A DNA stretch of 64,000 nucleotides from an uncultured Bacilli bacterium. Lineage in GTDB: Bacteria > Bacillota_I > Bacilli_A > RF39 > UBA660. The DNA is taken from positions 28,950 through 92,949 of the forward strand of contig CANQON010000001.1 of NCBI GenBank assembly GCA_947625505.1, in the 5' to 3' direction. The notes below the pieces were generated by a model. It did not search any database. It was not told the origin of the DNA and saw nothing but the letters and a program-made list of their open reading frames with translations. Both the position numbers and the translations under genes were made by a program. Positions 46,495-63,835 of this stretch are shown piece by piece. Position 1 is the first letter of the stretch. Each line of letters begins with the position of its first letter.

Positions 46495-47988
46495 ATGAAA
46501 CCATTAGTATTATGTATTATGGATGGTGTAGGAGAGAGAAAAGAATTACATGGAAATGCTGTAAAACAAGCTGATACTCCTATTTTAGATATGTTAAAAG
46601 GTAAATATGGATATAGTTTATTAGAAGCAAGTGGAACAAAAGTAGGACTACCAGAAGGCCAAATGGGTAATAGTGAAGTAGGTCATATGAATATTGGTGC
46701 AGGTAGAATTATTTATCAACCACTAGAACTAATCAATAACGCTATTAAAGATCAAACTTTTTACCAAAATGAAGAATTATTAAGAGCTATTAATCATGTA
46801 AAAAGATATAATTCAAAATTACATATTATGGGATTAATTAGTGATGGGGGAGTACACTCACATATTAATCATTTATTAGCTATATTAGATATGTGTAAAT
46901 TAAATAATGTTAGTAATATATATTTACATTTGTGTACAGATGGAAGAGATGTTGATCCTCATAGCGCCTATAGTTATATAGCTCGAGTTGAAGATAAGTT
47001 AAGAGAAGTAGGAGGCATTATTGCAACTATAAGTGGTAGATATTATACTATGGATCGTGATAATAATTATGATCGTTTACAAAAAGGGTATGATGCTATT
47101 GTTTATGGTAATGGATTAAGTAGTAATTCTCCTAAAGAAGCTATTGATATGAGTTATCAAAATGATATTAGTGATGAATTTATTGTACCAACAGTCTTTA
47201 CTGATAAAGGTACAGTAGATGATAATGATGCTTTTATTACTTTTAACTTCCGTAAAGATCGTTTACGTGAATTATTTACAGCTTTAACTAATCCTAATTT
47301 TAATGATATGCCTGTTAAAAAAATTAATAATTTATATGTACTTACGATGTTACCTGTTGTTGAATCTGTAATAGCGCCTCATGCTTTTGATGATCCAAAT
47401 CCTCATCATATATTAGGAGAAGTATTAGCTGATAATGGATTAAAACAATTACGTATTGCGGAAACAGAAAAGTATGCACATGTTACCTTCTTCTTTGATG
47501 GAGGAAAAGAAGTAGATTATCCAAATGAGAAGAAAATACTTATTCCTTCTCCTAAAGTAGCGACTTATGATTTAAAACCTGAAATGAGTGCTTATGAAGT
47601 AACAGAGAATTTAATTAATGAATTACCTTTCGTTGATGTTGTTATTTTAAATTTTGCTAATGGCGATATGGTAGGACATACAGGAGTATTTGATGCTGCT
47701 GTTAAAGCTGTGGAAGTTGTTGATGAATGTATTGGTAAAATATATGATAAAGTTGTTAGCTTAGAAGGTACTTTATTTATTATAGCTGATCATGGTAATA
47801 GTGATTATATGTTAGATGATGATGATAATGTTATAACAAGTCATTCAACTAGTTTAGTACCTTGTATTATTACTAAAGAGGGTATTAAATTAAAAAATGG
47901 TAAATTAGCAGATGTAGCGCCAACAATGTTACGTTTATTAAATATTGAGATACCTAGTGAAATGACAGGAGATGTCTTAATTGGCTAG
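46495..47988 (+). CDS. gpmI: 2,3-bisphosphoglycerate-independent phosphoglycerate mutase
   Basis: Catalytic and metal-binding motifs are all intact: IMDGVG, GNSEVGH, SDGGVHSH, TDGRDVDP, NGDMVGHTG and IIADHGNSD. Confidence 0.95.
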   Translation: MKPLVLCIMDGVGERKELHGNAVKQADTPILDMLKGKYGYSLLEASGTKVGLPEGQMGNSEVGHMNIGAGRIIYQPLELINNAIKDQTFYQNEELLRAINHVKRYNSKLHIMGLISDGGVHSHINHLLAILDMCKLNNVSNIYLHLCTDGRDVDPHSAYSYIARVEDKLREVGGIIATISGRYYTMDRDNNYDRLQKGYDAIVYGNGLSSNSPKEAIDMSYQNDISDEFIVPTVFTDKGTVDDNDAFITFNFRKDRLRELFTALTNPNFNDMPVKKINNLYVLTMLPVVESVIAPHAFDDPNPHHILGEVLADNGLKQLRIAETEKYAHVTFFFDGGKEVDYPNEKKILIPSPKVATYDLKPEMSAYEVTENLINELPFVDVVILNFANGDMVGHTGVFDAAVKAVEVVDECIGKIYDKVVSLEGTLFIIADHGNSDYMLDDDDNVITSHSTSLVPCIITKEGIKLKNGKLADVAPTMLRLLNIEIPSEMTGDVLIG

Positions 47989-49204: not shown

Positions 49205-49246
49205 TACATTCTATCTTTTTTTTCATACACTATTATGGGTGAATGT

Positions 49247-49675
49247 ATGAGAGTAGATAATATTGATGACCAAATAATTGTTTATTTAACTAATATTATC
49301 AATGAGGATTTAGAAATAATATGTGAACAAGTAATTAATAAATTAAAAAAATATTATGGAATCGAATTGAAAGGCTTTTATGAAGTAACTATATATTATG
49401 ACTTAAATTATGGTATGGTTTTAGTATTTAATTTAGAAGATTTAGATTTATATTATGATTATAGTAAAGTAGATTTACACATAATAAAAAAGGATAGTAC
49501 TTTTTTATTAGAAATAAAAGATATTTTAGATATAGCTACAGATGAATATTATTTTTATAATGATAAGTATTATCTATCTATTAAAGATATTAATGTTAAT
49601 AATTTAGAATTTGGTAAATTAGTATATGATACAGAAGAAATATTAAAGAAAGCAATTGTATGTAAAATACCATAA
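49247..49675 (+). CDS. hypothetical cytoplasmic acidic protein, about 142 aa
   Basis: RBS GGGTGAA precedes the ATG at 49247. The N-terminus MRVDNIDDQIIVYL… weakly recalls the N-terminal segments of MecA-type adaptors; this is not a confident assignment. Confidence 0.45.
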   Translation: MRVDNIDDQIIVYLTNIINEDLEIICEQVINKLKKYYGIELKGFYEVTIYYDLNYGMVLVFNLEDLDLYYDYSKVDLHIIKKDSTFLLEIKDILDIATDEYYFYNDKYYLSIKDINVNNLEFGKLVYDTEEILKKAIVCKIP

Positions 49676-49697
49676 AAGGTATATCAATTTTGCAAAA

Positions 49698-49710
49698 AGA
49701 GTGATATAAT
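49698..49710 (+). promoter_or_regulatory. extended -10 promoter (TGaTATAAT) at the head of the T7SS-like locus
   Basis: GAGTGATATAATTTTA lies about 30 nt upstream of the RBS AGGGTGA and the ATG at 49737. Confidence 0.45.
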
Positions 49711-49736
49711 TTTAATGAGTAAAATAGGGTGATAAG

Positions 49737-51329
49737 ATGAACGAAAAGAAAACAGTATTATTTTTAATGAATGGATTTGGAACTGAATCCGCTAAATCAT
49801 TTGAAGTATATTCTAAAGAAGTAATGCCTACTTTTGATACACTTATTAACGCTTATCCATTTAAATTATTATTTGCATCAGGTGAATTAATAGGCGCTAA
49901 TAAAAATGAAGTATCAAATTTTAAGACAGGATACTATAACTTTAGTAGTTTTGGACATCCAAGTAAAAAAGAAGATGTTTTAAATAGTAAAATAGCTGCT
50001 AATGAATTTAATAATAATCCTGTTATCAATAATAGTATTGATATAGCTGTTCAAAATAAGTCTAATTTACACATTGTATTTACTTTAGGTGATAAGGTAA
50101 ATAATGAAAGATATGAACATTTAAAACAATATTTAGAATTAGCTGTATCTAAAAACGTTGGTAAGATATATGTACACCTTATTTTAGGTGATAGTAGTAC
50201 AAGAGGATTAAAAATAGGAAGTCAATGCTTAACTAATTTTAAAAATAGAGTTTTACGTTATTATCCTCAAATTATTGTTGCATCACTAGCAGGAAGAATG
50301 TATGTAAAAAATGGATCTGCTAATGATATTGCTAACTATTATCGTATGATGGTTAGTGCCGTAGGAGAAATATGGACAGATTACGAAGCAACTTTAACAA
50401 AAAAATATGAACACGGTATGAATGATGATAATATGATTGCATTCTTAACTATACGTGAAAATATGTTACTTGAAGGTGACAGCATCTTTATGTTTAACTA
50501 TAGTAACAATATAGCAAGACAATTTTTAGATGTTGTTATAAATCCAAAAAAGTATTTTCCAACTAGTAATGTACCAGAAAATATTCATATTAACTCTTTA
50601 TTTACTATTAATAATTTGCCTCAAATACCACGTGCTTTTGAGGATGCTGTACCAGATACTTATTTATTAGATAAAATACCTGATACAAAAAAAGTCTTAA
50701 TTATGGCTACTAAAGAGCGTATACCTTATGTTAGTAAAACATTAAATGGATTTAGGCCTTCATTTAAAAGCAATGTTAGTGTATGGCCAATAGAAGATCG
50801 TAAAAAGAGATTTCAAAGCATTAGTCAGTATTTAGCTGCCTATATTAATCAAGATATATATGATTTAATAATCGTTGATTGTGAATTATATGATGAAGGT
50901 GCTGATGAACGTACGATAGCTAAAGTAATAGATAACATGAAAGAATTAGATAAATGTTTAAATATTACTTATCATCGTGCTATGGATAAGAATTATCGTT
51001 TAATAGCAACTTCATTATATGGAATTAAACAAAGATTTAAGTTAACAGCAACTATGGAATTAGTTGATTTATCACAAAAGACCCCATTCTTACTTGTTGA
51101 TAAAGAAATAAGAAGATTAGATATAGTCTTTAAAAATGAGGGAACATTTATTGATGTAGCTCGTTTAATTGCGATATCTTTTGGTTCTCAAATGTCAAAT
51201 AACTTAATTCAAATAGAAACAGTCGAAGAAAAGAAAAGTAGTAACAAAAAGAAATATATTATATTAGCTATACCAATAGCTATCTTATTAATATTGGTTA
51301 TAGCGTATATTTATATGATGTATTTTTAA
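49737..51329 (+). CDS. catalytically degenerate iPGM (GpmI) paralogue with a C-terminal TM anchor; first gene of the T7SS-like locus
   Basis: It aligns along its length with the window's own GpmI: VLFLMNGFGTE vs VLCIMDGVGER; LLFASGE vs LLEASGT; LHIVFTLGD…KIYVHLILGD vs LHIMGLISDGG…NIYLHLCTDGRD; LIIVDCELYDEGADERTIAKVIDNMKELDKC vs VVILNFANGDMVGHTGVFDAAVKAVEVVDEC. The catalytic Ser motif and the metal ligands DH/GH/DHG are lost. It ends with a hydrophobic helix, KKYIILAIPIAILLILVIAYIYMMYF. Confidence 0.7.
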   Translation: MNEKKTVLFLMNGFGTESAKSFEVYSKEVMPTFDTLINAYPFKLLFASGELIGANKNEVSNFKTGYYNFSSFGHPSKKEDVLNSKIAANEFNNNPVINNSIDIAVQNKSNLHIVFTLGDKVNNERYEHLKQYLELAVSKNVGKIYVHLILGDSSTRGLKIGSQCLTNFKNRVLRYYPQIIVASLAGRMYVKNGSANDIANYYRMMVSAVGEIWTDYEATLTKKYEHGMNDDNMIAFLTIRENMLLEGDSIFMFNYSNNIARQFLDVVINPKKYFPTSNVPENIHINSLFTINNLPQIPRAFEDAVPDTYLLDKIPDTKKVLIMATKERIPYVSKTLNGFRPSFKSNVSVWPIEDRKKRFQSISQYLAAYINQDIYDLIIVDCELYDEGADERTIAKVIDNMKELDKCLNITYHRAMDKNYRLIATSLYGIKQRFKLTATMELVDLSQKTPFLLVDKEIRRLDIVFKNEGTFIDVARLIAISFGSQMSNNLIQIETVEEKKSSNKKKYIILAIPIAILLILVIAYIYMMYF

Positions 51330-51411: not shown

Positions 51412-51663
51412 ATGAATAAAGTTCTTGTTAATATATACGTACCTCTTATTGAACAAGAATACAATTTATTTATCCCAGTTAATCGTAAGATTGGCTTGGT
51501 GAAAAAAATAATTGGTCATTCAATTGTTGAATTATCTGACGGAAATTATCAAATAGAGGGCTACTTCAACCTTTATAATAAAACGACAAATCGTGTTTAT
51601 GATGATGATACTTATGTAATAAATACCGATATTCGTAATGGTTCTAAACTTATCTTATTGTAG
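51412..51663 (+). CDS. YukD/EsaB-like ubiquitin-fold T7SS protein
   Basis: 83 aa. The YukD/EsaB pattern is present (VLVNIYVP…YNLFIPVN.KIG.V…NTDIRNGSKLILL). RBS GAGGGTGAG precedes the ATG. Confidence 0.7.
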   Translation: MNKVLVNIYVPLIEQEYNLFIPVNRKIGLVKKIIGHSIVELSDGNYQIEGYFNLYNKTTNRVYDDDTYVINTDIRNGSKLILL

Positions 51664-52227: not shown

Positions 52228-52243
52228 TTGTAGGAGGAAATAT

Positions 52244-53191
52244 ATGAATAATGAGGTTGGAGAAAAATTTTTACCAATAGGCTCAGTAGTAATGTTAAAG
52301 GGTGGTACTAAAAGAGCAATGATTACAGGATTCTGTTCTGTAGCCCAAGATGATGCACAAAAAACATATGATTATAGTGGATGTATATATCCTGAAGGAT
52401 ATATATCATCTAATCAAGTATGCTTATTTGATCATGATCAAATTGAAAAAGTATATTTTGTAGGATATGAAGACGAAGAAGAAAAAGCTTTTAAAGAAAA
52501 ATTAAAAACTTTAGTAGAAGCAAATAATAATCAAGCAAATGGAGGAGTAGTACCTAGTACTGTGCCAACAATTCCAGATATGAGTGTTCCTACACAACCA
52601 AGTACGATGGCAGTACCAGGAGTACCAAGTGTACCTGAGATGCCAGGTATGATACCACAAGCACCTGTACCAGATATGGGTATGCCAATGCAACCAAGTA
52701 CACCAGTAATGTCGACAGTACCAAGTGTACCTGAAATGCCAGGCATGATGCCACAAGCACCAGTACCAGATATGGGTATGCCAGTGCAACCAAGTATGCC
52801 AGTAATGCCAACAGCACCAAGTGTGCCTGAAATGCCAGGCATGATGCCACAAGCACCTGTACCAGATATGGGTATGCCAGTGCAACCAAGTACACCAGTA
52901 ATGCCAACAGTACCAAGTGTGCCTGAAATGCCAGGCATGATACCACAAGCACCAGTACCAGATATGGGTATGCCAGTGCAACCAAGTACACCAGTAATGC
53001 CAACAGTACCAAGTGTACCTGAAATGCCAAGTATGATGCCACAAGTACCACAAGCGCCAATGCCTATGGCTCCAGAAGTACCTCCAATGGCAGGACTTGC
53101 TCCATCACCATTTGGAATGCCAACTTCTCAACCACAAGTACCTGGTATGCCAACAGTTCCACCTGTTGATCCAAATAACCAAAATATGTAA
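52244..53191 (+). CDS. DUF4176-like N-terminal domain fused to a Pro/Met-rich 32-aa tandem-repeat tail
   Basis: The N-terminus FLPIGSVVMLKGGTKRAMITG…YDYSGCIYPEGY…VYFVGYEDEEE resembles the T7SS-associated DUF4176. Residues about 128–270 are 4.5 copies of PSVPEMPGM[IM]PQAPVPDMGMP[VM]QPS[TM]PVM[PS]T[VA]. RBS AGGAGG precedes the ATG. Confidence 0.55.
   Translation: MNNEVGEKFLPIGSVVMLKGGTKRAMITGFCSVAQDDAQKTYDYSGCIYPEGYISSNQVCLFDHDQIEKVYFVGYEDEEEKAFKEKLKTLVEANNNQANGGVVPSTVPTIPDMSVPTQPSTMAVPGVPSVPEMPGMIPQAPVPDMGMPMQPSTPVMSTVPSVPEMPGMMPQAPVPDMGMPVQPSMPVMPTAPSVPEMPGMMPQAPVPDMGMPVQPSTPVMPTVPSVPEMPGMIPQAPVPDMGMPVQPSTPVMPTVPSVPEMPSMMPQVPQAPMPMAPEVPPMAGLAPSPFGMPTSQPQVPGMPTVPPVDPNNQNM
52560..53060 (+). 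repeat. in-frame 96-bp tandem repeat of about 4.5 near-identical copies (unit starts 52625, 52721, 52817, 52913, 53009) plus a degenerate leading copy
   Basis: The unit ccaagtgtacctgaaatgccaggcatgatgccacaagcacc[ta]gtaccagatatgggtatgcca[ag]tgcaaccaagta… repeats directly with only a few substitutions per copy. Confidence 0.9.
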
Positions 53192-53194
53192 ACG

Positions 53195-53222
53195 AAAAGT
53201 ATTTTATAAATACTTTTTTTTT
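53195..53222 (+). terminator. intrinsic terminator between the substrate module and essC-1
   Basis: AAAGTATTT-tat-AAATACTTT followed by T10. Confidence 0.75.
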
Positions 53223-53230
53223 GTTATAAT
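53222..53230 (+). promoter_or_regulatory. extended -10 promoter (TGtTATAAT) for essC-1
   Basis: TTGTTATAAT lies 37 nt upstream of the essC-1 ATG. Confidence 0.45.
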
Positions 53231-53266
53231 AGATATAGTATGTTAAAAGAATAAGGATGGGATAGT

Positions 53267-56200
53267 ATGTTAGTATCATTAATTAAAAGTACGAGAATCA
53301 ATACGTTAACTTTACCTAATAGAATTATAGGTAACTATTGGGTTACAGATTATGATGATAATAATAATGAACAAAATTTAATTAGTATTGAAGCTCAAGA
53401 TGGGGCATGGCGTCTTATAAGTAATGATGATATTGCTGTTGTAGAAAATAATGCTGAAAGAGATTATGTCTATTTAAAAGAATATGCTTTTTACTTATTA
53501 AAATTTAAGCAAACTAATACATACTTACTATTATATTGTTCTCCTGTCTATGATAAAACTTTTAAAAGATATTATATTGGTTCTAATCAAGAGATTACTA
53601 TTGGTAATAATAATGCTAATGCCATATACTATGATAATTCGGGTGTTGATAATGTACATGCTAAATTAGCTTACTATTCAGGTAGTTTTATTGTTACTGA
53701 TAATAATAGTCGTTTAGGAGTATATGTTAATAAAATACGTGTTCAAAAACAACAAAAGTTAGAAAATGGGGATATTATATTTATTGCGGGTTTAAAAATA
53801 ATTGTTTTAATTGAAGATAATGTTCCAATTATTATTGTTAATAATCCTGATGGATTAGTTAGATGTCAATCTAATGTTTTAAAAGCTCAAGAGTTAAAAA
53901 CAATAGAAAATCCTAGTGAGTTATTAAATACAGTTGATGATCCTGATGATGTTTTAGATGTGGATTTATATAAAGAAGATGATTATTTTCATAAAAAACC
54001 ACGTTTTAAGTCTAATGTTAAGACATTAGATATTCAAATAGATGCTCCTCCTAGTGCTGAAAAGAGTGAAGAGATGCCTGTTATGTTAACATTAGGGCCT
54101 ATGGTAACAATGGGAGTATCATCAGCTGTTATGAGTATTACAGCTGTTACTAATGTTTTAGCGCATAATAGTACTTGGGGACAAGCTATGCCTGCTATTG
54201 CGATAGGTACAGCTATGTTAGGTAGTTTAATATTATGGCCTTCTTTAACAAGACGTTATGAAACAAAAAGAAAACAACGTAAAGAAGAAATAAGACAATT
54301 AAAGTATAGTCAATATATTGAAGGTAAACGTCAAACAATAGTTGAAACTATTCGTACTCAAAGACAAATTTTAGCTGAAAATAATTTATCTTTAGAAGAG
54401 TGTCAACAAGTTATTTTAAAGCGTAAAATGAATTTATGGGAACGTAAATATGGTGATGAAGATTTCTTAGTTGTTAACTTAGGATCTGGTGTATTACCTA
54501 TGGATATTAATATTCAATATCCTGAAGAACATTTTTCTTTAGAAGATGATAATTTAAGAGAAATGGTTATGCGTTTAGGTAGTGAACCTAAAAACCTAGC
54601 TGATGTTCCTTTAACTATTTCTTTATATGAAAAAAATATTTTAGCGCTTATTGGTACTAAAAAATTAAATAAATCATATATTGATCGTTTAATTTTACAA
54701 TTAGTAACATTCCATAGTTATGATGAACTAAAGATTGTTGTCTTTACTTCTAAAAATAATGAAGAGAGTTGGGATTATATAAAGATTCTTCCTCATTGTT
54801 GGAGCAATGATAAATCAATACGTTTCTTTGGTACAACAAATGATGAGATAAAAGAAGTATGTTATCATTTAGATCGTGAATTATCTTCACGTAGAGATGA
54901 AGAAGAACAAGTAAAAAGTAATTCACCTTATTATTTAATTATTACAGACTCTATTAAAACAATACGTAGTTTTGATGTTATTAAAGATATATTAGGATTA
55001 CAAGAAAATTATGGCTTTGGATTATTAATTATGAATGATCGCGTATCTAATTTACCTACAGAGTGTAAGGCTTTTATTAATGTATCAGAAAAGAATTCTG
55101 ACTTATTTGAGAATGTCTTAAATACTAATCATTTAAACTTCCGTATTGATTTTGATACGAATATTAATATGTATGAATGTGCGAAAGTATTAGCTAATAT
55201 GCCTATTGAAATAGGTGATGATAGTGAAGCTTTACCTAATAAGTATGGTTTCTTAGAAATGTATAATGTAGGTAAAGTAGAACAGTTAAACTCACTTAAT
55301 AGATGGCAAAAGAATAATCCTATTTTAACCTTACAAGCTCAAGTTGGAGTTGGTAAGGGAGGAGAAAAAATAAATCTTGATTTACATGAAAAATTTCATG
55401 GACCACATGGATTAGTAGCAGGATCTACAGGTAGTGGTAAATCAGAATTTATTATTACTTATATCTTATCAATGGCTGTTAACTATCATCCTAATGAAGT
55501 TCAATTTATTTTAATAGATTATAAAGGAGGAGGTCTAGCTGGAGCTTTTGAAAATAAAGAAACAGGTATTAGACTACCTCATTTAGCAGGGACAATTACT
55601 AACCTTGATACTAGTGAGATGAATCGTGCTTTAGCATCTATTGAATCAGAATTAAAAAGAAGACAAAGAATTTTTAATGAAGCTAGAGAGTTATCTGGTG
55701 AAAGTACGATTGATATATATAAATATCAAAAATTATATCGTAATGGAGTAGTTAAAGAACCTATAGCGCACTTATTTATCATTAGTGATGAGTTTGCTGA
55801 ATTAAAGAGTCAACAACCTGAATTCATGCAACAACTTATCAGTACAGCGCGTATAGGAAGATCTTTAGGTGTTCACCTTATTTTAGCAACGCAGAAACCT
55901 GCTGGTATTGTTGATAATCAAATATGGAGTAATACGCGTTTTAGAGTATGCTTACGTGTTCAAGAAAAAAGTGATAGTAATGATGTTATTAAATGCCCAG
56001 ATGCTGCTTTAATTAAACAGACAGGTCGTTTCTATTTACAAGTAGGATATAATGAAATATTTGAATTAGGACAATCAGCATGGTGTGGAGGTAAATATTA
56101 TCCTGCTGAAAAATTAAAGAAAACAGTTGATACTTCAATTGACTTTGTCGATAATGTAGGCTTTGTTATTAAGTCTGCTGAAAAAGATAAACATAAAGAT

Positions 56201-57901
56201 AGTGATAAAGCTCAAGGTGAAGAATTAAATAATGTTGTTGCATATTTATCTAATATAGCTGCAACCGAAGGAATTAGTGTTAAACAATTATGGTTAGATC
56301 GTATTCCTGATTATATTACAGTAGCTGCTTTAATGCGTAAATATGATATTAAGCCAAGTAAGAATTATATCGCGCCTATTATTGGTGAATATGATGATCC
56401 ATCTAATCAAAGACAAGATATTTTACGTATTCCTTTTGTAAATGATGGAAATGGTATTGTTTATGGAGTTAGTGGAAGTGGTAAAGAAAATTTAATTAGT
56501 TCAATGATTTTCTCTTCAATGTACCTATATACTCCAGAAGAATTAAATTATTATGTTCTAGATTTTGGATCTGAAACATTAAAAGTATTTGATAGTTGTC
56601 CATTAGTAGGAGATGTTTTACTTGCTAATGATAAAGATAAAATAGCTAATTTATTTAAGTTATTATCTAATAAAGTAGAAGAACGTAAAAAGTTATTTGC
56701 TCCTTATGGAGGAAGCTATGAATACTATATGGAAAATAGTGATAACAAATTGCCTGTTATTGTTGTAATAATAAATAACTTTGAAGTATATGATGATAGT
56801 TATCTTACATATGAAGAGTTGTTATTATCACTTACAAGAGAAGGATCTAAATATGGTATTTACTTCTTCTTATCTGTTAATACACCTAATGGTGTAAGAT
56901 TCAAAATGCGTCAAAACTTTAATCAAGAATTCGTTTTACAACAAAATAATGAAAATGATTATACAGCTATTTTGGGTAATGTTAAAAAGAATTATCCATC
57001 TAAGATTAAGGGTAGGGGTATTATTAAGAAAAATGATATTATATATGAATTCCAAACAGCATACCCTGCACCTAAAAATAAAGAAAGTTATACCTTTATT
57101 AAGGAACAATGCGAGACATGCGCTAAAGAATTTGATAAAGTGGCAGAACATGTTCCAACCTTACCTGATCATATAGCTTTCAAAGATGTAAAACACGAAT
57201 TAGGTAAGAGTGACGCTATGATAATTGGTTATAATAAAGAGACATTAGATATTGTAAAATATGACTTTACACATAAACCAGTTACTCTTATTACTGCTCA
57301 AGACATTAGTATGGCTAGTCACTTTGTTAGACCATTAATTAAACAATTTGCATCTTTAAATAAATGTGATGTCTTAGTTATTGATGCCGAAGAATTACAA
57401 TTAACAATGGGTATTGGTAACCTTAAATATGTTGATGTTAACTTTGATGATAATTTTACTAAATTAGAAAAATTTATTAATGATTATTATCAACAATATC
57501 TTGATAGTGATTATGATAGACACATATTTGAAAATGAAAGACCTGCAACAATATTTATTTGTGGCTTAGAAAGCTTTAGAAATAAATTAGGTATTGAAAA
57601 CAAAAATAAATTTGGCCAACTTTTTGAACATGCTAAAGATTTAGGTATCGTTAACTTTGTTATAGTTGAAAGTGCTGATAAACTTAAGAAATTTGAGACA
57701 GAAAGTTGGTATAAATCAGCTGTTAATAATACAACAGGTATTTGGGTAGGAAATGGTGTTTCTGAACAATTTATCTTGAAGTTAACTAAAGTAACAAAAG
57801 AAATAAGAGAAGATATTCCAGATAACTTCTGTTATGTAATAGCTAGAGGTAAACCAATTCTTACACAATTTATTGAAAGTTTTGATATTTTAAATGATTA
57901 G
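53267..57901 (+). CDS. essC: T7SS FtsK/SpoIIIE-family ATPase EssC/YukB, paralogue 1 (1544 aa)
   Basis: N-terminal FHA-like domains are followed by 2 TM helices (about aa 270–330) and three ATPase domains. D1 Walker A is GPHGLVAGSTGSGKSEFIITYILSMAVNYHP, with …ILATQKP…GRFYLQVGY. D2 is YGVSGSGKENL. D3 is degenerate. Confidence 0.9.
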   Translation: MLVSLIKSTRINTLTLPNRIIGNYWVTDYDDNNNEQNLISIEAQDGAWRLISNDDIAVVENNAERDYVYLKEYAFYLLKFKQTNTYLLLYCSPVYDKTFKRYYIGSNQEITIGNNNANAIYYDNSGVDNVHAKLAYYSGSFIVTDNNSRLGVYVNKIRVQKQQKLENGDIIFIAGLKIIVLIEDNVPIIIVNNPDGLVRCQSNVLKAQELKTIENPSELLNTVDDPDDVLDVDLYKEDDYFHKKPRFKSNVKTLDIQIDAPPSAEKSEEMPVMLTLGPMVTMGVSSAVMSITAVTNVLAHNSTWGQAMPAIAIGTAMLGSLILWPSLTRRYETKRKQRKEEIRQLKYSQYIEGKRQTIVETIRTQRQILAENNLSLEECQQVILKRKMNLWERKYGDEDFLVVNLGSGVLPMDINIQYPEEHFSLEDDNLREMVMRLGSEPKNLADVPLTISLYEKNILALIGTKKLNKSYIDRLILQLVTFHSYDELKIVVFTSKNNEESWDYIKILPHCWSNDKSIRFFGTTNDEIKEVCYHLDRELSSRRDEEEQVKSNSPYYLIITDSIKTIRSFDVIKDILGLQENYGFGLLIMNDRVSNLPTECKAFINVSEKNSDLFENVLNTNHLNFRIDFDTNINMYECAKVLANMPIEIGDDSEALPNKYGFLEMYNVGKVEQLNSLNRWQKNNPILTLQAQVGVGKGGEKINLDLHEKFHGPHGLVAGSTGSGKSEFIITYILSMAVNYHPNEVQFILIDYKGGGLAGAFENKETGIRLPHLAGTITNLDTSEMNRALASIESELKRRQRIFNEARELSGESTIDIYKYQKLYRNGVVKEPIAHLFIISDEFAELKSQQPEFMQQLISTARIGRSLGVHLILATQKPAGIVDNQIWSNTRFRVCLRVQEKSDSNDVIKCPDAALIKQTGRFYLQVGYNEIFELGQSAWCGGKYYPAEKLKKTVDTSIDFVDNVGFVIKSAEKDKHKDSDKAQGEELNNVVAYLSNIAATEGISVKQLWLDRIPDYITVAALMRKYDIKPSKNYIAPIIGEYDDPSNQRQDILRIPFVNDGNGIVYGVSGSGKENLISSMIFSSMYLYTPEELNYYVLDFGSETLKVFDSCPLVGDVLLANDKDKIANLFKLLSNKVEERKKLFAPYGGSYEYYMENSDNKLPVIVVIINNFEVYDDSYLTYEELLLSLTREGSKYGIYFFLSVNTPNGVRFKMRQNFNQEFVLQQNNENDYTAILGNVKKNYPSKIKGRGIIKKNDIIYEFQTAYPAPKNKESYTFIKEQCETCAKEFDKVAEHVPTLPDHIAFKDVKHELGKSDAMIIGYNKETLDIVKYDFTHKPVTLITAQDISMASHFVRPLIKQFASLNKCDVLVIDAEELQLTMGIGNLKYVDVNFDDNFTKLEKFINDYYQQYLDSDYDRHIFENERPATIFICGLESFRNKLGIENKNKFGQLFEHAKDLGIVNFVIVESADKLKKFETESWYKSAVNNTTGIWVGNGVSEQFILKLTKVTKEIREDIPDNFCYVIARGKPILTQFIESFDILND

Positions 57902-57971: not shown

Positions 57972-57999
57972 ATTTGATGAGAATAGGGGTCGTGTGATT

Positions 58000-60900
58000 A
58001 TGCTGATATCAATAATGGATAACGACAAATTGACGAAGTTTAATTTACCTGAAAAAGTAGAAGAAACTTTCCTTATTAAGTATCGCCCTGTCAATTCTAA
58101 TATTGACAAGGATATTAATGTGGAATCATCTAATGGTAAATGGTATTTAAAAAGTAATGGTAGTATTGATGTTGCTATCGATAATAAAATTATTGATAAA
58201 GCAGTACTAGAAGAATATAATCAGTATTTTCTATCAGTAAGTGGACAAAAAATATACTCTATCCTATATTGTTCTCCTTCAAATGAAGAAAAACAAAAAT
58301 ATAAATTTAATACGGATCATATAACAATAGGTAAGGATACTAATTCTACTATTTGTTATCAAAATAATTTAATGGCACCTACACATGCAACAATATATTG
58401 TCAAAATAATACTTGGTTTATCAAAAGTAGTGATTTAGATTGGGCTCGTGTTTATGTTAATAATGTACGTGAATATAATGCTAAGTTACATGTAGGGGAT
58501 GTTATTTTTATAAATGGGTTAAAGATTATTTGGATGAATAGTTTTATCGTAATTAATAATCCTAAAGGAGAAGCTAATATATCTAATATTTTGACACCTT
58601 ATGCTGAAGAAAATGTTGATAATACTAAATATTCTGAAATATCAGAGGATGAAGAGAATGTTCCTTTATATGATGAAAAAGAATATTTTAGTCATGTTCC
58701 TAGACTTCGTACAGTATTTGAAACAGATACTGTAGAGATTGATGAACCTCCAATGTCTCAAAATGTTGAAGATCAACCTTTTATTGCAACAATTGGTACT
58801 TCACTTATGATGCTTGCTTCAACATTAGTTATGGGCTCATCTATATTAAATAGTATTAGTAATGGAACTGCTAATATCATAATGATTATTCCACAAGCAG
58901 CTATGATTATTGCAATGATTATTGCAACGATTGTTCTTCCTAAATATCTTCGTAAATATCAACGTTCTAAAAGAGACGAAAAAGAAGCTTTAAGGCAAAA
59001 AAAGTATACCAATTATTTAAATGATAAAGAAGCTAAAATCAAATCTTTATTAAAAGCAAAACAACAAGTTTTAAATGAAAACTTTCCTATGCTAAATGAA
59101 GCTATTGTTACTGTAAATAATCGTACTAGAAGACTATGGGAAAAAGAAATAAAGGATGATGATTTCTTAACAATACGTTTAGGCTTAGGTAATATGCCAT
59201 CTAATATTACGATTAATGCTGCTAAAGAAAGATTTACCCTAGATGATGATAATTTAAGAGCTCGTGTTCATGCAATTGTAGATCACTCTAAAATACTTGA
59301 AAATGTTCCTGTTACTTTTTCCTTTGCTGAAAAGAATATTTCAGCTATTATAAGTGAAGGACATTATAATAAGAAATATATTGATGGCTTAATCCTTCAG
59401 ATTTTAGCATATCATAGTCCTGCTGATTTAAAGATTGTCTTACTTACTAATTATGCTAATACGAATAGATGGAGTTATTTAAAGTTTGCTCCACATTGTT
59501 GGACTGATGACCGAGAGATGCGTTTTTATGCTGATGATATGGAAGAAATGAAGAATATATCATCATATCTTGAAAACGAATTAAATAAAAGAAAAGCATT
59601 ATTAGAAAATAATGATAATAAAGATATTAAAAGACAAGATGGATTTAAAAACTTTTCACCATATTACTTAATCATTACTGATGACTATCGTAATACTAAG
59701 AATGTTCAGTTTTTATCAACATTCTTACACGAAGAAGAAAACTATGGTTTTTCTTTATTACTAGTTGATGATTCTATGCGTAATATGCCTAATGAATGTG
59801 ATACATTTATTGATGTTTTAGATAAAAATAGTTGTATCTTTCAAAAGGAATTAAGTAGTCAAACACAAACGAATTTTATTAATGAGTATGTTGATTCTGT
59901 TAATATGGATGATATAGTCTTTAAGTTAGCTAATATTCCTGTTGCATCTAGAGAAATGATGAGTTTATTACCTAAATCTATTTCTTTCTTAGAAATGTAT
60001 AATGTAGGTAATATCAAACAATTAAATATTTTAAATAGATGGAAGACAAGTAATCCTGTTATTACACTTGAAGTTCCTGTTGGAGTACATCCTAGTGGAG
60101 AATTATTTAAATTAAATCTACATGAAAAATTTCATGGACCACATGGTTTAATTGCAGGATCTACAGGTAGTGGTAAATCCGAATTTATTATTACTTACAT
60201 CTTATCTATGGCTATTAACTATCATCCTGATGATGTTCAATTTGTATTAATAGACTATAAAGGTGGAGGCTTAGCAGGAGCATTTGAAAACCGTGAAAGT
60301 GGAGTTCAAATACCTCATTTAGCAGGTACGATAACTAATTTAGATACTAATGAAATGAATCGTACTTTAGTATCTATTCAAAGTGAGTTAAAACGTCGTC
60401 AAGCTAAATTTAATGAAGCTCGTGATCGCTTAGATGAAAGTACGATTGATATTTATAAATATCAGAGATATTATCATGAAGGATTACTAGATGAACCTAT
60501 TGCACATTTATTTATTATATGTGATGAGTTTGCGGAATTAAAGAGTCAACAACCTGAATTCATGCAACAACTTATTAGTACATCACGTATAGGTCGTTCT
60601 TTAGGAGTTCACCTTATTTTAGCAACGCAGAAACCTACGGGAGTTGTTAATGATCAAATATGGTCTAACTCAAGATTTAAAGTATGTTTAAAAGTACAGA
60701 GTCGTAGTGATAGTATGGAAATGTTAAAGCGTCCTGAAGCGGCATCAATTAAAGATACAGGACGTTTCTATTTACAAGTAGGCTATGATGAATTATTTGA
60801 ATTAGGTCAATCAGCATGGTGTGGTGCTAAATATATTCCAACTGAACGTATAAAGAAAAAACAAGATGATTCAATAACTTTTGTAGATAATACTGGATAT

Positions 60901-62595
60901 GTAATTAAAAATGTTAATGATATTCATCGTAAAGAAGATTCTGTATCAAAAGGGGAACAATTAACAAATATTGTTAAATACTTATCAGAGTTAGCTGAAA
61001 AAGAGAATTATCATCCACATCGTTTATGGTTAAATAAAATACCTGATGTTATTTATGTAGATGAGTTAAAGAAAAAATATAATTATAAACCAAAACGTTT
61101 TGTTATGGATTCTATAATAGGGGAGTATGATGATCCATCTAATCAAAAACAAGATGTTGTTAAATTAAACTTATCTAGTGATGGCAATGCTTTAATATAT
61201 GGCTTACCTACTACAGGTAAAGAAAACTTATTAGCAACCATTATCTATTCAATGGTAACAGATCATAGTGTAGATGAATTAAATATGTATATTATGGATT
61301 TTGGAGCTGAAACATTACGTATGTTTCAAAATATTCCTCATATAGGTGATTTAGCTTACATTGAAGATGAAGAAAAAATAATTAAATTATTAGAATTAAT
61401 CGATAATGAAATAGAATTACGTAAGAATTTATTTGTTGACTATGCAGGTAGTTATATTGATTATTGTACGAATAGTGGAAATACTTTACCTACAATTGTT
61501 ATAATGATTAATGGTTATGAAAACTTCCAAGAAAATTTTGGTAAATATGAAGATAGTCTTTATACACTTATTCGTGAAAGTAATAAATATGGTATTTATT
61601 TTATAGTAGCGACATCTGTTAATAGTTGTATTCGTAGTCGTTTACTTCAAAACTTTAATAATCGTTTATCTATGCAACTATCTGATCCAATGGATTATCG
61701 TATTTTACTTAATGCTCCAAAAGATTTAAATCCTGCTCATAATTATGGACGTGGTATTGTTCGTATTAATGATACAGGTTTTGAATTCCAATCAGCATTT
61801 ATAACAGATAAAAATAGAATAGGTGACGCTATTAAGATATTAAGTGCACGTTTAAGTAATTATTATAAACGTCGTGCTCCTAAGATACCAATTTTACCTA
61901 AAAAGGTAATTGATAGTAGTTTACCAATACCTAAGTCATTAGATCAGGTACCTATTGGTGTATTAAAGAAGAATGTAGAACCTGCTTATTATGATTTTGA
62001 ACGTAGTAAATATACAACAATTGGTACTAATATCTTAGATGATAAATTGCCATTCTTTAATGCTTTATTACGTAAATTAAGTGCTATACCAAATTTAAGA
62101 ATTAAAGTAATTGATGCTTATCAAGCATATCAACCACAGATACCGAATGTTACTGTTTATAGTAAAGATTTTGATCAAGTTATTAACATGATGTATCAAG
62201 AACTTGATATTGAAGAAAAACAAAATTATAAAACATTATATTTTGTAGTTGGTATTGGACAGTTAAAAGTAAGATTAAGTAAAGAAGCTCAAACTAAATA
62301 TATGACTATTTTAGGATCATTAAAGAATTTTATTAATAGTTATTTTATCGCTATTGATAGTATTCAAGCTTTACGAAGTCTTGAGTTAGATAGTTGGTAT
62401 CGTAATAATGTCTCTAGATCTGATGGTATATGGTTAGGTGATGGCTTTGGTAGTCAAAGTATTATTAAAGTTTCTAACTTTACTTTAGAAGATCGTAAAG
62501 TAAGCTATCCAGAAATTGCTTATATTGCTAATAAGGGAAAATATGAATTTGTTAAATATATGATTGAAGAGGAGACTGATCAAGATGAGGAATAA
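58000..62595 (+). CDS. essC: T7SS FtsK/SpoIIIE-family ATPase EssC/YukB, paralogue 2 (about 1532 aa)
   Basis: Same architecture as paralogue 1. D1 is nearly identical ([52 protein letters not shown]), while the FHA region, the D2 P-loop (GLPTTGKEN) and the C-terminal D3 have diverged. RBS TAGGGGT precedes the ATG at 58000, which aligns with the paralogue-1 N-terminus (MLVSLI vs MLISIM). Confidence 0.9.
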   Translation: [1531 protein letters not shown]

Positions 62596-62839: not shown

Positions 62840-62893
62840 AAGAATTATATAATTCTTCTTTTTTTACAAAAAAAATAAGGTAAAACCTTATTT
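62838..62893. terminator. convergent pair of intrinsic terminators
   Basis: + strand: GAAGAATTAT/ATAATTCTTC palindrome followed by T7. – strand: AATAAGGT-aaa-ACCTTATT with T8 on the complementary strand. Confidence 0.8.
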
Positions 62894-63199
62894 TATGATT
62901 TGTATTCTTTCTTTAATTACGGTTGCATCAATTTTATCAAAAAGATCACAAACTTCTAAAGAAGTATTATTCATTTCAACAATGCTAGTATTAACATAGT
63001 CTTTAATAAGCACACAATTACCTTTAACTTTACGTATTGCCTCAGGCAAAGCATTTAAATAAGTTCGGTAACTAAATCCTGATGGAATATCTAATCCTTC
63101 AGCTATATTAATAGCTGAAATTAATTCATCGATACCATCATCAATAACAGGCATAAAATAAGATTTTAAGCCATTCGTATTAATAAGTAATTTACTCAT
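62888..63199 (-). CDS. small helical protein (about 103 aa) in the minus-strand Esx-like cluster
   Basis: It overlaps the upstream gene by 8 nt (coupled). It is acidic and predicted alpha-helical. No WxG. Confidence 0.5.
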   Translation of the reverse strand: MSKLLINTNGLKSYFMPVIDDGIDELISAINIAEGLDIPSGFSYRTYLNALPEAIRKVKGNCVLIKDYVNTSIVEMNNTSLEVCDLFDKIDATVIKERIQIIK

Positions 63200-63506
63200 T
63201 ATTTATTTCTACCTTTCGCATAGTCGTTTCAATTTTCTCAGCTGTTTCTTGAAATAGCATACCGAATCTTTTTAAGTTATTATATAAGTTTATATATATT
63301 TCTTTTTCTTGCGTGACTTGAGCGATATATCTATCTGCATCATCACCTTGCCAACCATCTTCACGAGTATTTAAATTACTAATATAAGTAAAAATTGTTT
63401 CAATTATTTCTTCATAGTCATCTGCTAAAGCTACGATATCTTGACCACAAGATTTTATTTTTTTAGTATCACAATCAATACTAGTCATTATTTCTTGTTC
63501 CTCCAT
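63192..63506 (-). CDS. WXG100-like protein (104 aa) with a central WxG
   Basis: …TREDGWQGDDADRYIAQV… is a central W-Q-G between two helical segments, the WXG100 (EsxA/Lap-like) hallmark. Confidence 0.55.
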   Translation of the reverse strand: MEEQEIMTSIDCDTKKIKSCGQDIVALADDYEEIIETIFTYISNLNTREDGWQGDDADRYIAQVTQEKEIYINLYNNLKRFGMLFQETAEKIETTMRKVEINNE

Positions 63507-63520
63507 ATAATAGTAGCATC

Positions 63521-63835
63521 CTATATTTTATCAGCATTTAAATCCAATTCATGAAGACGTGTTATTTCAATATTTAGTTGAGCAATACGACTATTTATCG
63601 TTGGTATTATTTTAGTAATTAGAATATTGTAGATATTATTAATAGAATCAACACTATCTTTTAATTTACTATTATCAGCAATATCACTATCAATACGGTA
63701 GTATTTACCTAATTGATTAGTGGCACTTTCAATATTCGTTGTACTAGTATTTAAGTGTGAACAAATACTTTTTATATTATCCATTAATTTATAATATCTA
63801 TTACGTTCATATTCTAATTCTGATATTAAAGACAT
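63521..63835 (-). CDS. small helical protein (104 aa), Esx/Lap-like helper candidate
   Basis: RBS GGAGG is 6 nt upstream of the ATG. Coiled-coil-like composition and the same size class as its neighbours. Confidence 0.5.
   Translation of the reverse strand: MSLISELEYERNRYYKLMDNIKSICSHLNTSTTNIESATNQLGKYYRIDSDIADNSKLKDSVDSINNIYNILITKIIPTINSRIAQLNIEITRLHELDLNADKI

Follow-up and report, generated by a model that had tools for sequence, protein, structure and literature searches.

The window, by which we mean the whole 64,000-nucleotide stretch of DNA that we analyzed from an uncultured Bacilli bacterium, contains a type VIIb secretion system (T7SSb) gene cluster, and a gene encoding a DUF4176 protein is placed inside it. 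The cluster runs from an 83-amino-acid (aa) ORF through two WXG100-like ORFs and the DUF4176 gene to two EssC paralogues, and the same gene order was found at L002, L003, L042, and L045, as well as at L041 as far as its contig end. The EssC paralogues, directly downstream of the DUF4176 gene, score 1005.8 and 973 bits (above the TIGR03928 cut-off of 778.4), and the WXG100-like ORFs directly upstream have sub-threshold Pfam and NCBIfam matches. The 83-aa ORF, at 51412, was considered as a YukD/EsaB candidate by its size and position only, and it had no Pfam or NCBIfam match even at an E value of 10. No homologues of EssB, EsaA, or EssA were detected near essC, and no LXG-size gene lies beside the DUF4176 gene in the window, which stops 1.4 kb past the second essC.

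The DUF4176 gene (52244 to 53191, plus strand) encodes a 315-aa protein in which a DUF4176 domain is followed by a disordered Pro/Met-rich tail and a conserved C-terminal motif, an architecture drawn from the ORF list, Pfam, an AF2 model, and synteny. The gene occupies the same syntenic position in conspecific contigs and in other species. It is preceded by a Shine-Dalgarno-like AGGAGG (52232 to 52237, plus strand) that ends 6 nt 5' of the ATG, in the sequence ...gtAGGAGGaaatatATG. The spacer before essC contains an AT-rich hairpin and then a T9 run (53194 to 53222, plus strand; RNA fold of -7.6 kcal/mol, z = -3.2 versus shuffles), which together are weakly terminator-like. This feature is separate from the repeat finding described below, and it was missed by a terminator scan that requires G+C. 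Across 49.0 to 53.5 kb, a consensus scan for promoters and terminators returned fewer promoter-like sites than were present in shuffles and no G+C-rich terminator. No RNA family was identified when the whole window was scanned with Rfam, and the region therefore has no RNA explanation.

The first-pass annotation had called the N-terminus DUF4176-like, and every comparison we made agrees with that call. The domain occupies residues 9 to 83 (52268 to 52492, plus strand), where the PF13780 match covers profile positions 1 to 74 of 74 (E = 8.1e-29; score 99.9 bits, cut-off 25). In a phmmer search against the PDB, residues 8 to 89 aligned with residues 3 to 84 of 9DCS chain A (E = 5.5e-8), and the top 10 Foldseek matches in the PDB were all DUF4176 crystal structures (9DCS, 9DCT, and 9DCR; probability 1.00), with TM scores of 0.54 to 0.60 normalised to 9DCS. 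Weaker Foldseek matches went to Tudor, Sm, and CAP-Gly small barrels. The AF2 model has five strands and a helix within residues 11 to 90 (pLDDT 77 to 92), showing the antiparallel sheet and helices of the solved DUF4176 C-lobe fold. DSSP on the model places an alpha-helix at residues 78 to 99 (52475 to 52540, plus strand; EEEKAFKEKLKTLVEANNNQ), which is predicted to close the folded part; in this region D77, E79, and F83 are invariant among 67 homologues, and E80, K84, and L87 are nearly so. Pfam and NCBIfam found no domain in the 315-aa protein besides DUF4176.

DUF4176 proteins are dimeric and are needed for the stability of linked LXG toxins (PMC12478183; PMC12482557). LtcA and LtcB, the two characterised large members, bind a disordered amphipathic toxin segment and are reported not to be exported (PMC12478183; PMC12482557); the export evidence in the family comes from these two proteins only. 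At 315 aa, the window protein fits neither the small (70 to 130 aa) nor the large (200 to 250 aa, N-lobe plus C-lobe) size class of PMC12478183; it is a small-type DUF4176 domain with an added tail.

Residues 101 to 315 have no secondary structure in the AF2 model (pLDDT of roughly 44 to 62), and this Pro/Met-rich tail (P 29%, M 16%, V 14%) is predicted to be intrinsically disordered. Tandem Repeats Finder identified a single array within it, at 52621 to 53050 (period 96, 4.5 copies, 93% matches, 0% indels, score 741), in the same frame as the 315-aa ORF. Set in codon register, the array has four full 96-bp (32-codon) units (52622 to 53005, plus strand), with pairwise identities of 90.6 to 96.9%, each encoding the module VPSVPEMPGM[I/M]PQAPVPDMGMPVQPSTPVMPT. 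The first-pass annotation's description of about 4.5 near-identical 96-bp copies encoding an in-frame 32-aa module thus held up, its module being ours rotated by one residue. Self-identity at period 96 was 0.93, compared with 0.26 +/- 0.02 (maximum 0.33) in 1000 shuffles, and the array contains an exact 62-nt repeat with copies at 52859 and 52955. A partial fifth unit follows (53006 to approximately 53050, plus strand), in which about 13 codons of the unit are kept: its first 36 nt differ from unit 3 at 4 positions, with rapid divergence beyond. Upstream of the array, at approximately 52560 to 52621 (plus strand), a degenerate partial copy, VPTIPDMSVPTQPSTMAVPG, agrees with the unit consensus over its final two thirds at 19/32 plus 19/32 positions in an ungapped comparison, and it is older than the full units. 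Minus-strand ORFs of 135 to 180 aa across the array were rejected as stop-free by-products of the repeat.

We recovered six complete conspecific alleles, all of them from short-read metagenome SPAdes contigs at 4-5x coverage, and each is an intact ORF of either 315 aa (four full units) or 283 aa (three full units). One of these, L024 (ERZ27249395), carries a gene identical to that of the window, and L019 (ERZ27248973) likewise encodes a 315-aa product; the two short alleles are those of L020 (ERZ27249389) and L023 (ERZ27249300). Between strains, the array diverges by 1.6 to 6.7% compared with 0.02 to 0.7% in the flanks, a 3- to 30-fold excess. Sixteen distinct sequences occur among the 22 units, in mosaic combinations across units and strains. 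Each unit has 17 variable sites, 10 of which alter a residue. Among the ten Pro codons per unit, eight never change the residue (two of these vary, synonymously only) and two show P/S. Copy-number change between strains is probable, and the different allele lengths, the shuffled unit variants, and the excess of array divergence over that of the flanks all support the earlier suggestion of recent or ongoing change in the array. The suggestion that the product might be phase variable fared less well: since the unit is 32 codons long, copy changes keep the frame and cannot produce on/off switching, and all six complete alleles are open. A scan of JGI metagenome contigs for further alleles yielded 27 loci, none of the same species, and so added no copy-number data; matches at these loci reached no further than about residue 110 of the query, at 55 to 88% identity.

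Every syntenic orthologue (WXG-like, DUF4176, essC) is also tailed. These tails are 84 to 434 aa long and mutually unalignable, and some have young in-frame repeats of their own: 120 nt x2 (94%), 51 nt x5.4 (91%), 144 nt x2 (92%), and 21 nt x4.7 (94%). A scan of genome contigs, covering one genome per species, supplied orthologues but no alleles from the window's own species. In other genomic contexts, close relatives are small proteins of 91 to 155 aa, and the 78 sequence homologues found range from 173 to 526 aa. When family representatives were clustered at 50% identity and the best 150 of 2299 were examined for tails, 48 of these 150 nearest representatives extended at least 60 aa beyond the domain, and other tailed subgroups end in conserved termini of their own (QFDENGTV[IV]SA, I[KR]PF[SGA]E, and IPGLxRL). 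No carrier of a similar tail outside DUF4176 was found, PF13780 being present in all 78 significant matches of the full-length query. The first-pass annotation's view of the fusion as unusual was therefore an overstatement; the domain-plus-tail protein is real but only moderately unusual, since proteins in this part of the family normally have a tail.

The array gives way to a non-repeated Pro-rich stretch (53051 to 53164, plus strand; ...APEVPPMAGLAPSPFGMPTSQPQVPGMPTVPP in translation) that is partly alignable with the syntenic orthologues, and the protein then ends in VDPNNQNM-COOH (53165 to 53188, plus strand). Alignment of the last 60 residues gave the consensus [VIL][DN]-P-[ND]-[NG]-x-N-M, and the terminal [VIL][DN]PN[NG]xNM or a near variant, with which the syntenic orthologues all end, is common to seven sequences (the window protein, P0001, P0017, P0002, P0008, P0012, and P0019); the motif is short and within low-complexity sequence, and its conservation is based on these seven. 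It is confined to the DUF4176 protein in the window locus and in L003, L041, L042, and L019. Tails of 84 to 434 aa that are unalignable and have their own repeats, yet share a terminus, carry the signature of a domain, a variable linker, and a C-terminal peptide. Two other readings of the tail were discarded. The idea that the Met-rich tail binds Cu(I) or forms a "methionine bristle" was rejected because Met is not conserved, with orthologues having V, A, or I at like positions; within the species, tail Met codons swap with V, I, and T through single AT-biased changes. Recognition of a phosphorylated Thr-Pro by EssC FHA domains was set aside because the sole Thr-Pro per unit is polymorphic (T/M/I). 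Elsewhere in the window, a PASTA Ser/Thr kinase gene is present at 39033 to 40778.

Taking the head, tail, and terminus together, the reading we prefer, and consider somewhat better than an even bet, is that the protein is a cytoplasmic T7SSb accessory protein, an Ltc-like chaperone or adaptor with a variable linker that grows near-neutrally by repeats and a C-terminal docking peptide. The repeat, the identity of the domain, the predicted disorder, the synteny, the variable tail with its conserved end, and the differences between alleles are established, whereas we infer that the protein is cytoplasmic, that it acts as a chaperone, that its terminal motif docks, and what it docks onto. The protein would have three parts: a DUF4176 head (residues ~9 to 99), a disordered Pro-scaffolded linker of ~205 residues, and the terminal peptide VDPNNQNM. 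The head, probably a dimer as in the solved members, would hold a T7SS client by one of its hydrophobic or disordered segments. This chaperone mechanism is suggested by LtcA and LtcB, which dimerize, grip an LXG toxin by a disordered amphipathic segment, and are reported to be kept in the cell. The tail would act as a flexible tether, and the terminal motif may anchor the assembly to some other component encoded at the locus, with EssC as the obvious candidate given that the gene is invariably found directly upstream of essC. The 96-bp repeats would represent recent in-frame duplications of linker modules. If the linker is held to composition only, with the Pro skeleton retained and V/M/I/A/T filler interchangeable, then changes in unit number and the shuffling of variants would cost little, and unequal recombination, slippage, and gene conversion could bring about both between strains. 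The outcome of unit gain or loss would be length polymorphism. Against this explanation, the window has no LXG toxin client gene, the terminal motif is short and of low complexity, the copy-number differences come from low-coverage assemblies, and the elevated non-synonymous polymorphism of the array also fits diversifying selection on an exposed product.

Two alternatives bear on whether the array varies and whether the tail matters. It is possible, although on balance we think it unlikely, that the array does not vary within the population and that its apparent differences in copy number and its mosaic units arose during assembly. Coverage of all the alleles is low, 6 of the 13 distinct contigs stop inside the array, and there are evident base errors in L034. 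The usual largest k-mer of metaSPAdes is 55, which the 62-nt exact repeat exceeds, and L020 misses precisely the unit between the two 62-nt copies, where assembler collapse is possible. However, the short allele of L023 is on a different haplotype, and its hybrid-unit junction lies elsewhere, at a point where related alleles share only ~34 nt. L020 has also lost 27 nt of spacer between 11-nt direct repeats, a change not expected of an assembler, so real slippage events have occurred in that lineage, and single-base unit variants recur at consistent unit positions across independent samples. We find it decidedly less plausible that the tail is functionless low-complexity sequence, drifting in length by slippage, and that the DUF4176 domain alone matters. 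The unalignable orthologue tails, the small size of close relatives in other contexts, and the independent origin of repeats in each lineage are all as that explanation would have them. Against it, a long in-frame open tail is retained at every WXG-like, DUF4176, essC locus, and in composition the tail is always built on Pro residues with hydrophobic filler, plus acidic residues in some orthologues. In addition, the extreme C-terminus is conserved although the whole of the sequence separating it from the domain varies, and other tailed subgroups have conserved termini of their own.

Two further alternatives would give the repeats a more specific role, and we consider both improbable. The tail could span or decorate the wall as part of a T7SS substrate or surface-exposed product, varying under diversifying selection from the host or phage, an explanation to which we give little credence. 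Pro-rich repeats are typical of wall-spanning regions in Gram-positive surface proteins, the gene neighbours WXG100-like genes, and a conserved unstructured C-terminus could serve as a T7 export signal; the array is also several-fold more polymorphic than its flanks, with over half of its variable unit sites changing a residue. Yet no signal peptide, transmembrane segment, LPXTG motif, or wall-binding domain was found in the 315-aa protein, whose N-terminus (MNNEVGEKFLPIGS...) lacks a signal-like h-region, and its folded part is the beta-rich fold of the DUF4176 chaperones, whereas T7 substrates form a helical hairpin. Where residues differ, they are exchanged conservatively (V/A, I/M, M/V, T/M/I, P/S, and G/S) and the Pro skeleton is kept, a pattern that fits relaxed constraint better than directed diversification, and LtcA and LtcB are reported not to be exported (PMC12478183). 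These same absences, the Ltc chaperone fold, and the retention of LtcA and LtcB also count against the first-pass annotation's surface or secreted product, wall-spanning spacer, or secretion plug. Equally slim, in our view, is the chance that each 32-aa unit is a binding site, with copy number tuning valency, such that the array is a multivalent platform recruiting partners or an autoinhibitory pseudo-client that folds onto the SH3-like DUF4176 barrel. Some small barrels of the Tudor/Sm/CAP-Gly type, to which the head shows its weaker Foldseek matches, bind Pro-rich peptides. An MPE[ML]P-like element that occurs once per unit here recurs in orthologous tails, as MPELMPVPEVEP once near the C-terminus (P0012 and P0019), as PVMPEMPP (P0002), and as SMPEV (P0001 and P0017), but this element is short, lies in biased sequence, and is without statistical support. 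Moreover, orthologues have very different tails at the same locus (acidic or Ala/Val-rich), and the Thr-Pro site that might have allowed FHA or kinase recognition is polymorphic (T/M/I).

DUF4176 proteins were recently shown to be T7SSb toxin chaperones, with a division into "small" and "large" folded classes (PMC12478183). A third architecture, in which a long disordered tail links a small domain to a conserved terminal peptide, is what we see at this locus and in about a third of the nearest representatives, and we found no description of it in the papers mentioning DUF4176 that we searched. At this locus the architecture is fixed in a core position directly upstream of essC. Repeat polymorphism alone is ordinary for a disordered linker. 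If, as in our preferred reading of an Ltc-like accessory protein, the terminal peptide docks on the machine, then that peptide would offer a concrete handle, and the natural three- and four-unit alleles would be ready-made linker-length variants. A stronger version, which we regard as doubtful and raise only tentatively, holds that tailed DUF4176 proteins are an undescribed class of T7SSb machine-associated adaptors, with the head tethered to EssC or another core part and its reach or valency tuned by gain and loss of repeats. Since no EssB, EsaA, or EssA homologue was detected near essC in these uncultured gut Bacilli, the protein could, if this version is true, be a core component there instead of a helper to particular toxins.

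Among characterized proteins, the closest is MQE10_09270 of Streptococcus intermedius GC1825 (PDB 9DCS), a small DUF4176 protein required for TelD stability (PMC12478183), with which the window protein shares an aligned domain, its best predicted-fold match, and a gene in a T7SSb locus. Known small members are 70 to 130 aa long, have no extension, and are mostly encoded beside DUF443 immunity genes, whereas the window protein has ~215 additional disordered residues and a conserved terminal motif and is encoded between WXG100-like genes and essC. With LtcA/LtcB (PDB 9DCR, 9DCT, and 9MNO), it shares the C-lobe fold and T7SSb association. Ltc proteins are 200 to 250 aa long and have a folded N-lobe ahead of the DUF4176 lobe; in the window protein, by contrast, the DUF4176 lobe comes first and the additional residues form an unstructured C-terminal part, and there is no adjoining LXG gene in the window.

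Beyond the family, EspK has a long Pro/Ala-rich linker between a part that contacts the EccC ATPase and a part that binds substrate, the same tether logic that we propose here. EspK belongs to the mycobacterial ESX-1 system, a T7SSa, where it is the chaperone of the T7 substrate EspB (PMC12478183). It differs in that the folds are unrelated, the phylum and T7SS subtype are other than ours, and there are neither near-identical tandem repeats nor homology. As in phase-variable contingency loci with intragenic repeats, the tandem-repeat copy number here probably differs between strains, as judged from 4-5x short-read assemblies, but unlike those loci the 96-bp unit never shifts the frame, and the six complete alleles are open, leaving length polymorphism only. 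FtsZ has a C-terminal linker with a conserved peptide, and SSB has a disordered linker with an acidic tip. The likeness to these two is in architecture only, their proteins and partners being unrelated, and it lies in a linker that is free to vary between species and ends in a few conserved terminal residues.

The 96-bp array lies in the DUF4176 gene, an ORF at 52244-53191 on the forward strand that encodes 315 aa and has AGGAGG 6 nt upstream. Tandem Repeats Finder detected a single strong array at 52621-53050 (period 96, 4.5 copies, 93% matches, 0 indels, score 741), and self-identity at period 96 was 0.93, compared with 0.26 ± 0.02 in shuffled sequences. In codon register, four full units occupy 52622-53005 (+), a fifth keeps the consensus for ~13 codons, and ~52560-52621 (+) holds a degenerate, older partial copy. 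The full units share 90.6 to 96.9% pairwise identity, and the array is in frame with the ORF, encoding the module VPSVPEMPGM[I/M]PQAPVPDMGMPVQPSTPVMPT. Local G+C rises to 0.34 at the array, versus ~0.24 to 0.32 elsewhere, because of CCA proline codons. The repeat had been correctly described and placed by the first-pass annotation.

That annotation's assignment of the N-terminal domain to DUF4176 also holds. The only Pfam domain in the protein is DUF4176 (PF13780, E=8.1e-29), with the full profile covered by residues 9-83, and these residues align with 9DCS, the crystal structure of a small DUF4176 protein from S. intermedius (E=5.5e-8). AlphaFold2, run with 67 homologues, gave a confident model of residues ~11-90 (pLDDT 77-92), with five strands and a helix spanning 78-99, and the top ten Foldseek matches in the PDB were all DUF4176 structures (9DCS, 9DCT, and 9DCR). 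By profile, sequence-to-structure match, predicted fold, and locus type, membership in the family is nearly certain. Residues 101-315 lacked secondary structure in the model (pLDDT ~44-62), and the tail, which is 29% Pro, 16% Met, and 14% Val, is likely disordered. Profile searches found no second domain in the protein, and its sequence contains no discernible signal peptide, transmembrane segment, or sorting motif.

The gene sits in a T7SSb locus of an uncultured low-G+C gut Bacilli member, the nearest genomes being "uncultured Bacilli" MAGs from rabbit and human gut and Candidatus Coprovivens. Upstream of ~49.2 kb are housekeeping genes (PolC, DnaE, IleRS, PASTA kinase, RsgA, trigger factor, FtsW, histidine kinase, iPGM, and GTPase), after which come a 146-aa ORF, a 530-aa iPGM-like ORF, an 83-aa ORF, two WXG100-like ORFs, the DUF4176 gene, and two EssC genes. 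These tandem, full-length EssC paralogues (53267-57901 and 57994-62595) both exceed the TIGR03928 EssC cut-off and carry FHA and FtsK/SpoIIIE domains. The WXG100-like ORFs gave sub-threshold matches only, and the 146-aa and 83-aa ORFs matched no profile. The iPGM-like protein, encoded near a bona fide iPGM gene (46495-47988), falls far short of the curated iPGM cut-off, and its C-terminal segment is hydrophobic; its gene and the 146-aa ORF, which together span 49235-51329, are syntenic with T7SS genes in five loci from other species (L002, L003, L041, L042, and L045). Profiles for EssB, EsaA, EssA, and YukD had no match between 49.2 and 64 kb, and no LXG toxin gene adjoins the DUF4176 gene within the window. 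In L045, a second EssC gene is also present a few genes downstream. Directly after the DUF4176 stop codon, an AT-rich 11-bp hairpin followed by T9 (53194-53230; -7.6 kcal/mol, z=-3.2) overlaps a TG-extended -10-like promoter match (53203-53230), an arrangement that may punctuate transcription where the small genes give way to essC. Beyond the second essC, three successive minus-strand ORFs of ~104 aa (62888-63835), one with weak WXG100 and EspA/EspE-like matches, probably encode small helical T7-related proteins.

The fusion of a DUF4176 domain to a tail had been considered unusual, a view that the wider family contradicts. All 78 sequence homologues (173 to 526 aa) carry PF13780, and the order iPGM-like, 83-aa ORF, two WXG-like ORFs, DUF4176, EssC recurs in L002, L003, L042, and L045, and in L041 up to the contig end. 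Every syntenic orthologue is tailed, with 84 to 434 residues after the domain. These tails are mutually unalignable and differ in composition (Pro/Val/Ala; Pro/Val/Ile/Thr; or Pro with Ala, Val, and acidic residues), and several hold young in-frame DNA repeats of their own, with periods other than 96: 120 nt (2.0 copies, 94% matches), 51 nt (5.4 copies, 91%), 144 nt (2.0 copies, 92%), and 21 nt (4.7 copies, 94%). In alignment, the orthologues share an extreme C terminus (VDPNNQNM, VDPNGQNM, LDPNNNNM, INPDNSNM, SVPNNM, or LPNNDNQNMQ), which no other ORF carries in the window, L003, L041, L042, or the conspecific contig L019. In a HMMER search of 1.84 billion representatives that used only the domain as query, 2299 family members were found; among the best 150 of these, 75 were small, 48 extended at least 60 residues past the domain, always in low-complexity sequence, 15 had two or more DUF4176 domains, and 12 had N-terminal extensions. 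Given the tails in homologues and syntenic orthologues alike, we conclude that the domain-plus-tail design is common and old in this branch, and that only the particular 96-bp array is young.

Different conserved termini characterize other tailed subgroups: QFDENGTV[IV]SA, [DS]I[KR]PF[SGA]E, and IPGLxRL (homologues P0020, P0034, P0039, P0043, P0062, and many others). The QFDENG group carries one to three repeats of an internal motif, PP[IV]GPGLPGYVAP, and relatives of 107 to 155 aa often end in xPF[AGS]. A distant subgroup (P0072-P0078, 339 to 377 aa) has a different C-terminal extension with many 14- to 18-aa "IISIPxxxYxx" repeats, which looks structured rather than disordered. Tailed genes of the QFDENG/KFDEE group (loci L038-L040 and L043) are not adjacent to essC and occur in effector-type modules, next to WXG100 genes and 650- to 1109-aa ORFs that have no annotation; sample ERZ27248973, the source of one of these contigs, also yielded a conspecific contig.

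Exact look-up of two small upstream proteins retrieved 13 distinct same-species contigs from separate metagenome assemblies. The DUF4176 gene was complete in six, encoding 315 aa in four and 283 aa, exactly one unit fewer, in two. L024 matches the window exactly. In L020, a single base differs from the window over the 5 kb upstream and another over 4 kb of essC, and unit 3 is missing; its spacer has also lost 27 nt between 11-nt direct repeats, ATAGTATGTTA (L020 7130-7177, window 53232-53258), just before the essC start, which removes AAGGATGG upstream of the ATG. The short allele in L023 is on a different haplotype and has a hybrid unit at another junction. The 22 full units have 17 variable positions and 16 distinct sequences, which mostly combine one shared set of biallelic sites in various ways, as expected of gene conversion or unequal exchange. 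Of the 10 proline codons in the unit, eight never change residue. Between strains, the array diverges by 1.6 to 6.7%, versus 0.02 to 0.7% in the flanks.

These two allele lengths, the mosaic units, and the excess divergence favor the suggested recent or ongoing copy-number change, which is likely but unproven because every conspecific contig was assembled from short reads at 4-5x coverage, six of the 13 contigs end inside the array, and the one unit that L020 lacks is flanked exactly by the two copies of a 62-nt exact repeat (52859 and 52955). Base errors add to this: L034 has several T-to-A changes near its contig end (6833-7416), including a premature stop at DUF4176 codon 44, most likely a low-coverage assembly error and not a pseudogene. 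An assembly artefact, which would account for the copy-number part of the variation only, is therefore a serious though less probable alternative. That the tail is functionless low-complexity sequence is doubtful, given that every syntenic orthologue keeps one and that the terminus is conserved. Still less probable is a secreted or surface-exposed product under diversifying selection: the high array divergence notwithstanding, export and anchoring signals are absent, the fold is that of a chaperone, and the substitutions are conservative; the proposal of a surface or secreted product is not supported. We give a similarly slim chance to the units being binding sites, as a multivalent platform or autoinhibitory pseudo-client; an MPE[ML]P-like element does recur in orthologous tails, without statistical support.

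DUF4176 proteins dimerize and stabilize T7SSb LXG toxins before export; LtcA folds a disordered amphipathic toxin segment into its own hydrophobic groove, and both LtcA and LtcB are retained in the cell (PMC12478183; PMC12482557). We lean, by a modest margin of confidence, toward a mechanism in which the DUF4176 head would do the same chaperone job for a putative client, the proline-scaffolded tail would be a flexible tether, and the conserved terminal peptide would dock on a fixed partner. EssC is the prime candidate because the gene is invariably adjacent to essC, although such docking is unproven. The repeat units would be duplicated linker modules and, with the linker constrained in composition only, could be gained, lost, and homogenized at little cost, giving length polymorphism without on/off switching. 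Since the units keep the reading frame, this is not a contingency locus, contrary to the suggestion of phase variation. The first-pass observation is real and its interpretation partly right; taken alone, the array is a case of ordinary linker evolution.

The 315-aa protein fits neither published DUF4176 size class: it joins a "small"-type domain to a C-terminal disordered extension, whereas in "large" Ltc proteins a folded N-lobe precedes the DUF4176 lobe. None of the papers we found describes a tailed, motif-tipped DUF4176 architecture in a core position upstream of essC, and this architecture offers a testable idea of how a T7SSb chaperone might couple to the machine. By analogy only, this architecture parallels that of mycobacterial EspK and the linker-plus-terminal-peptide designs of FtsZ and SSB.
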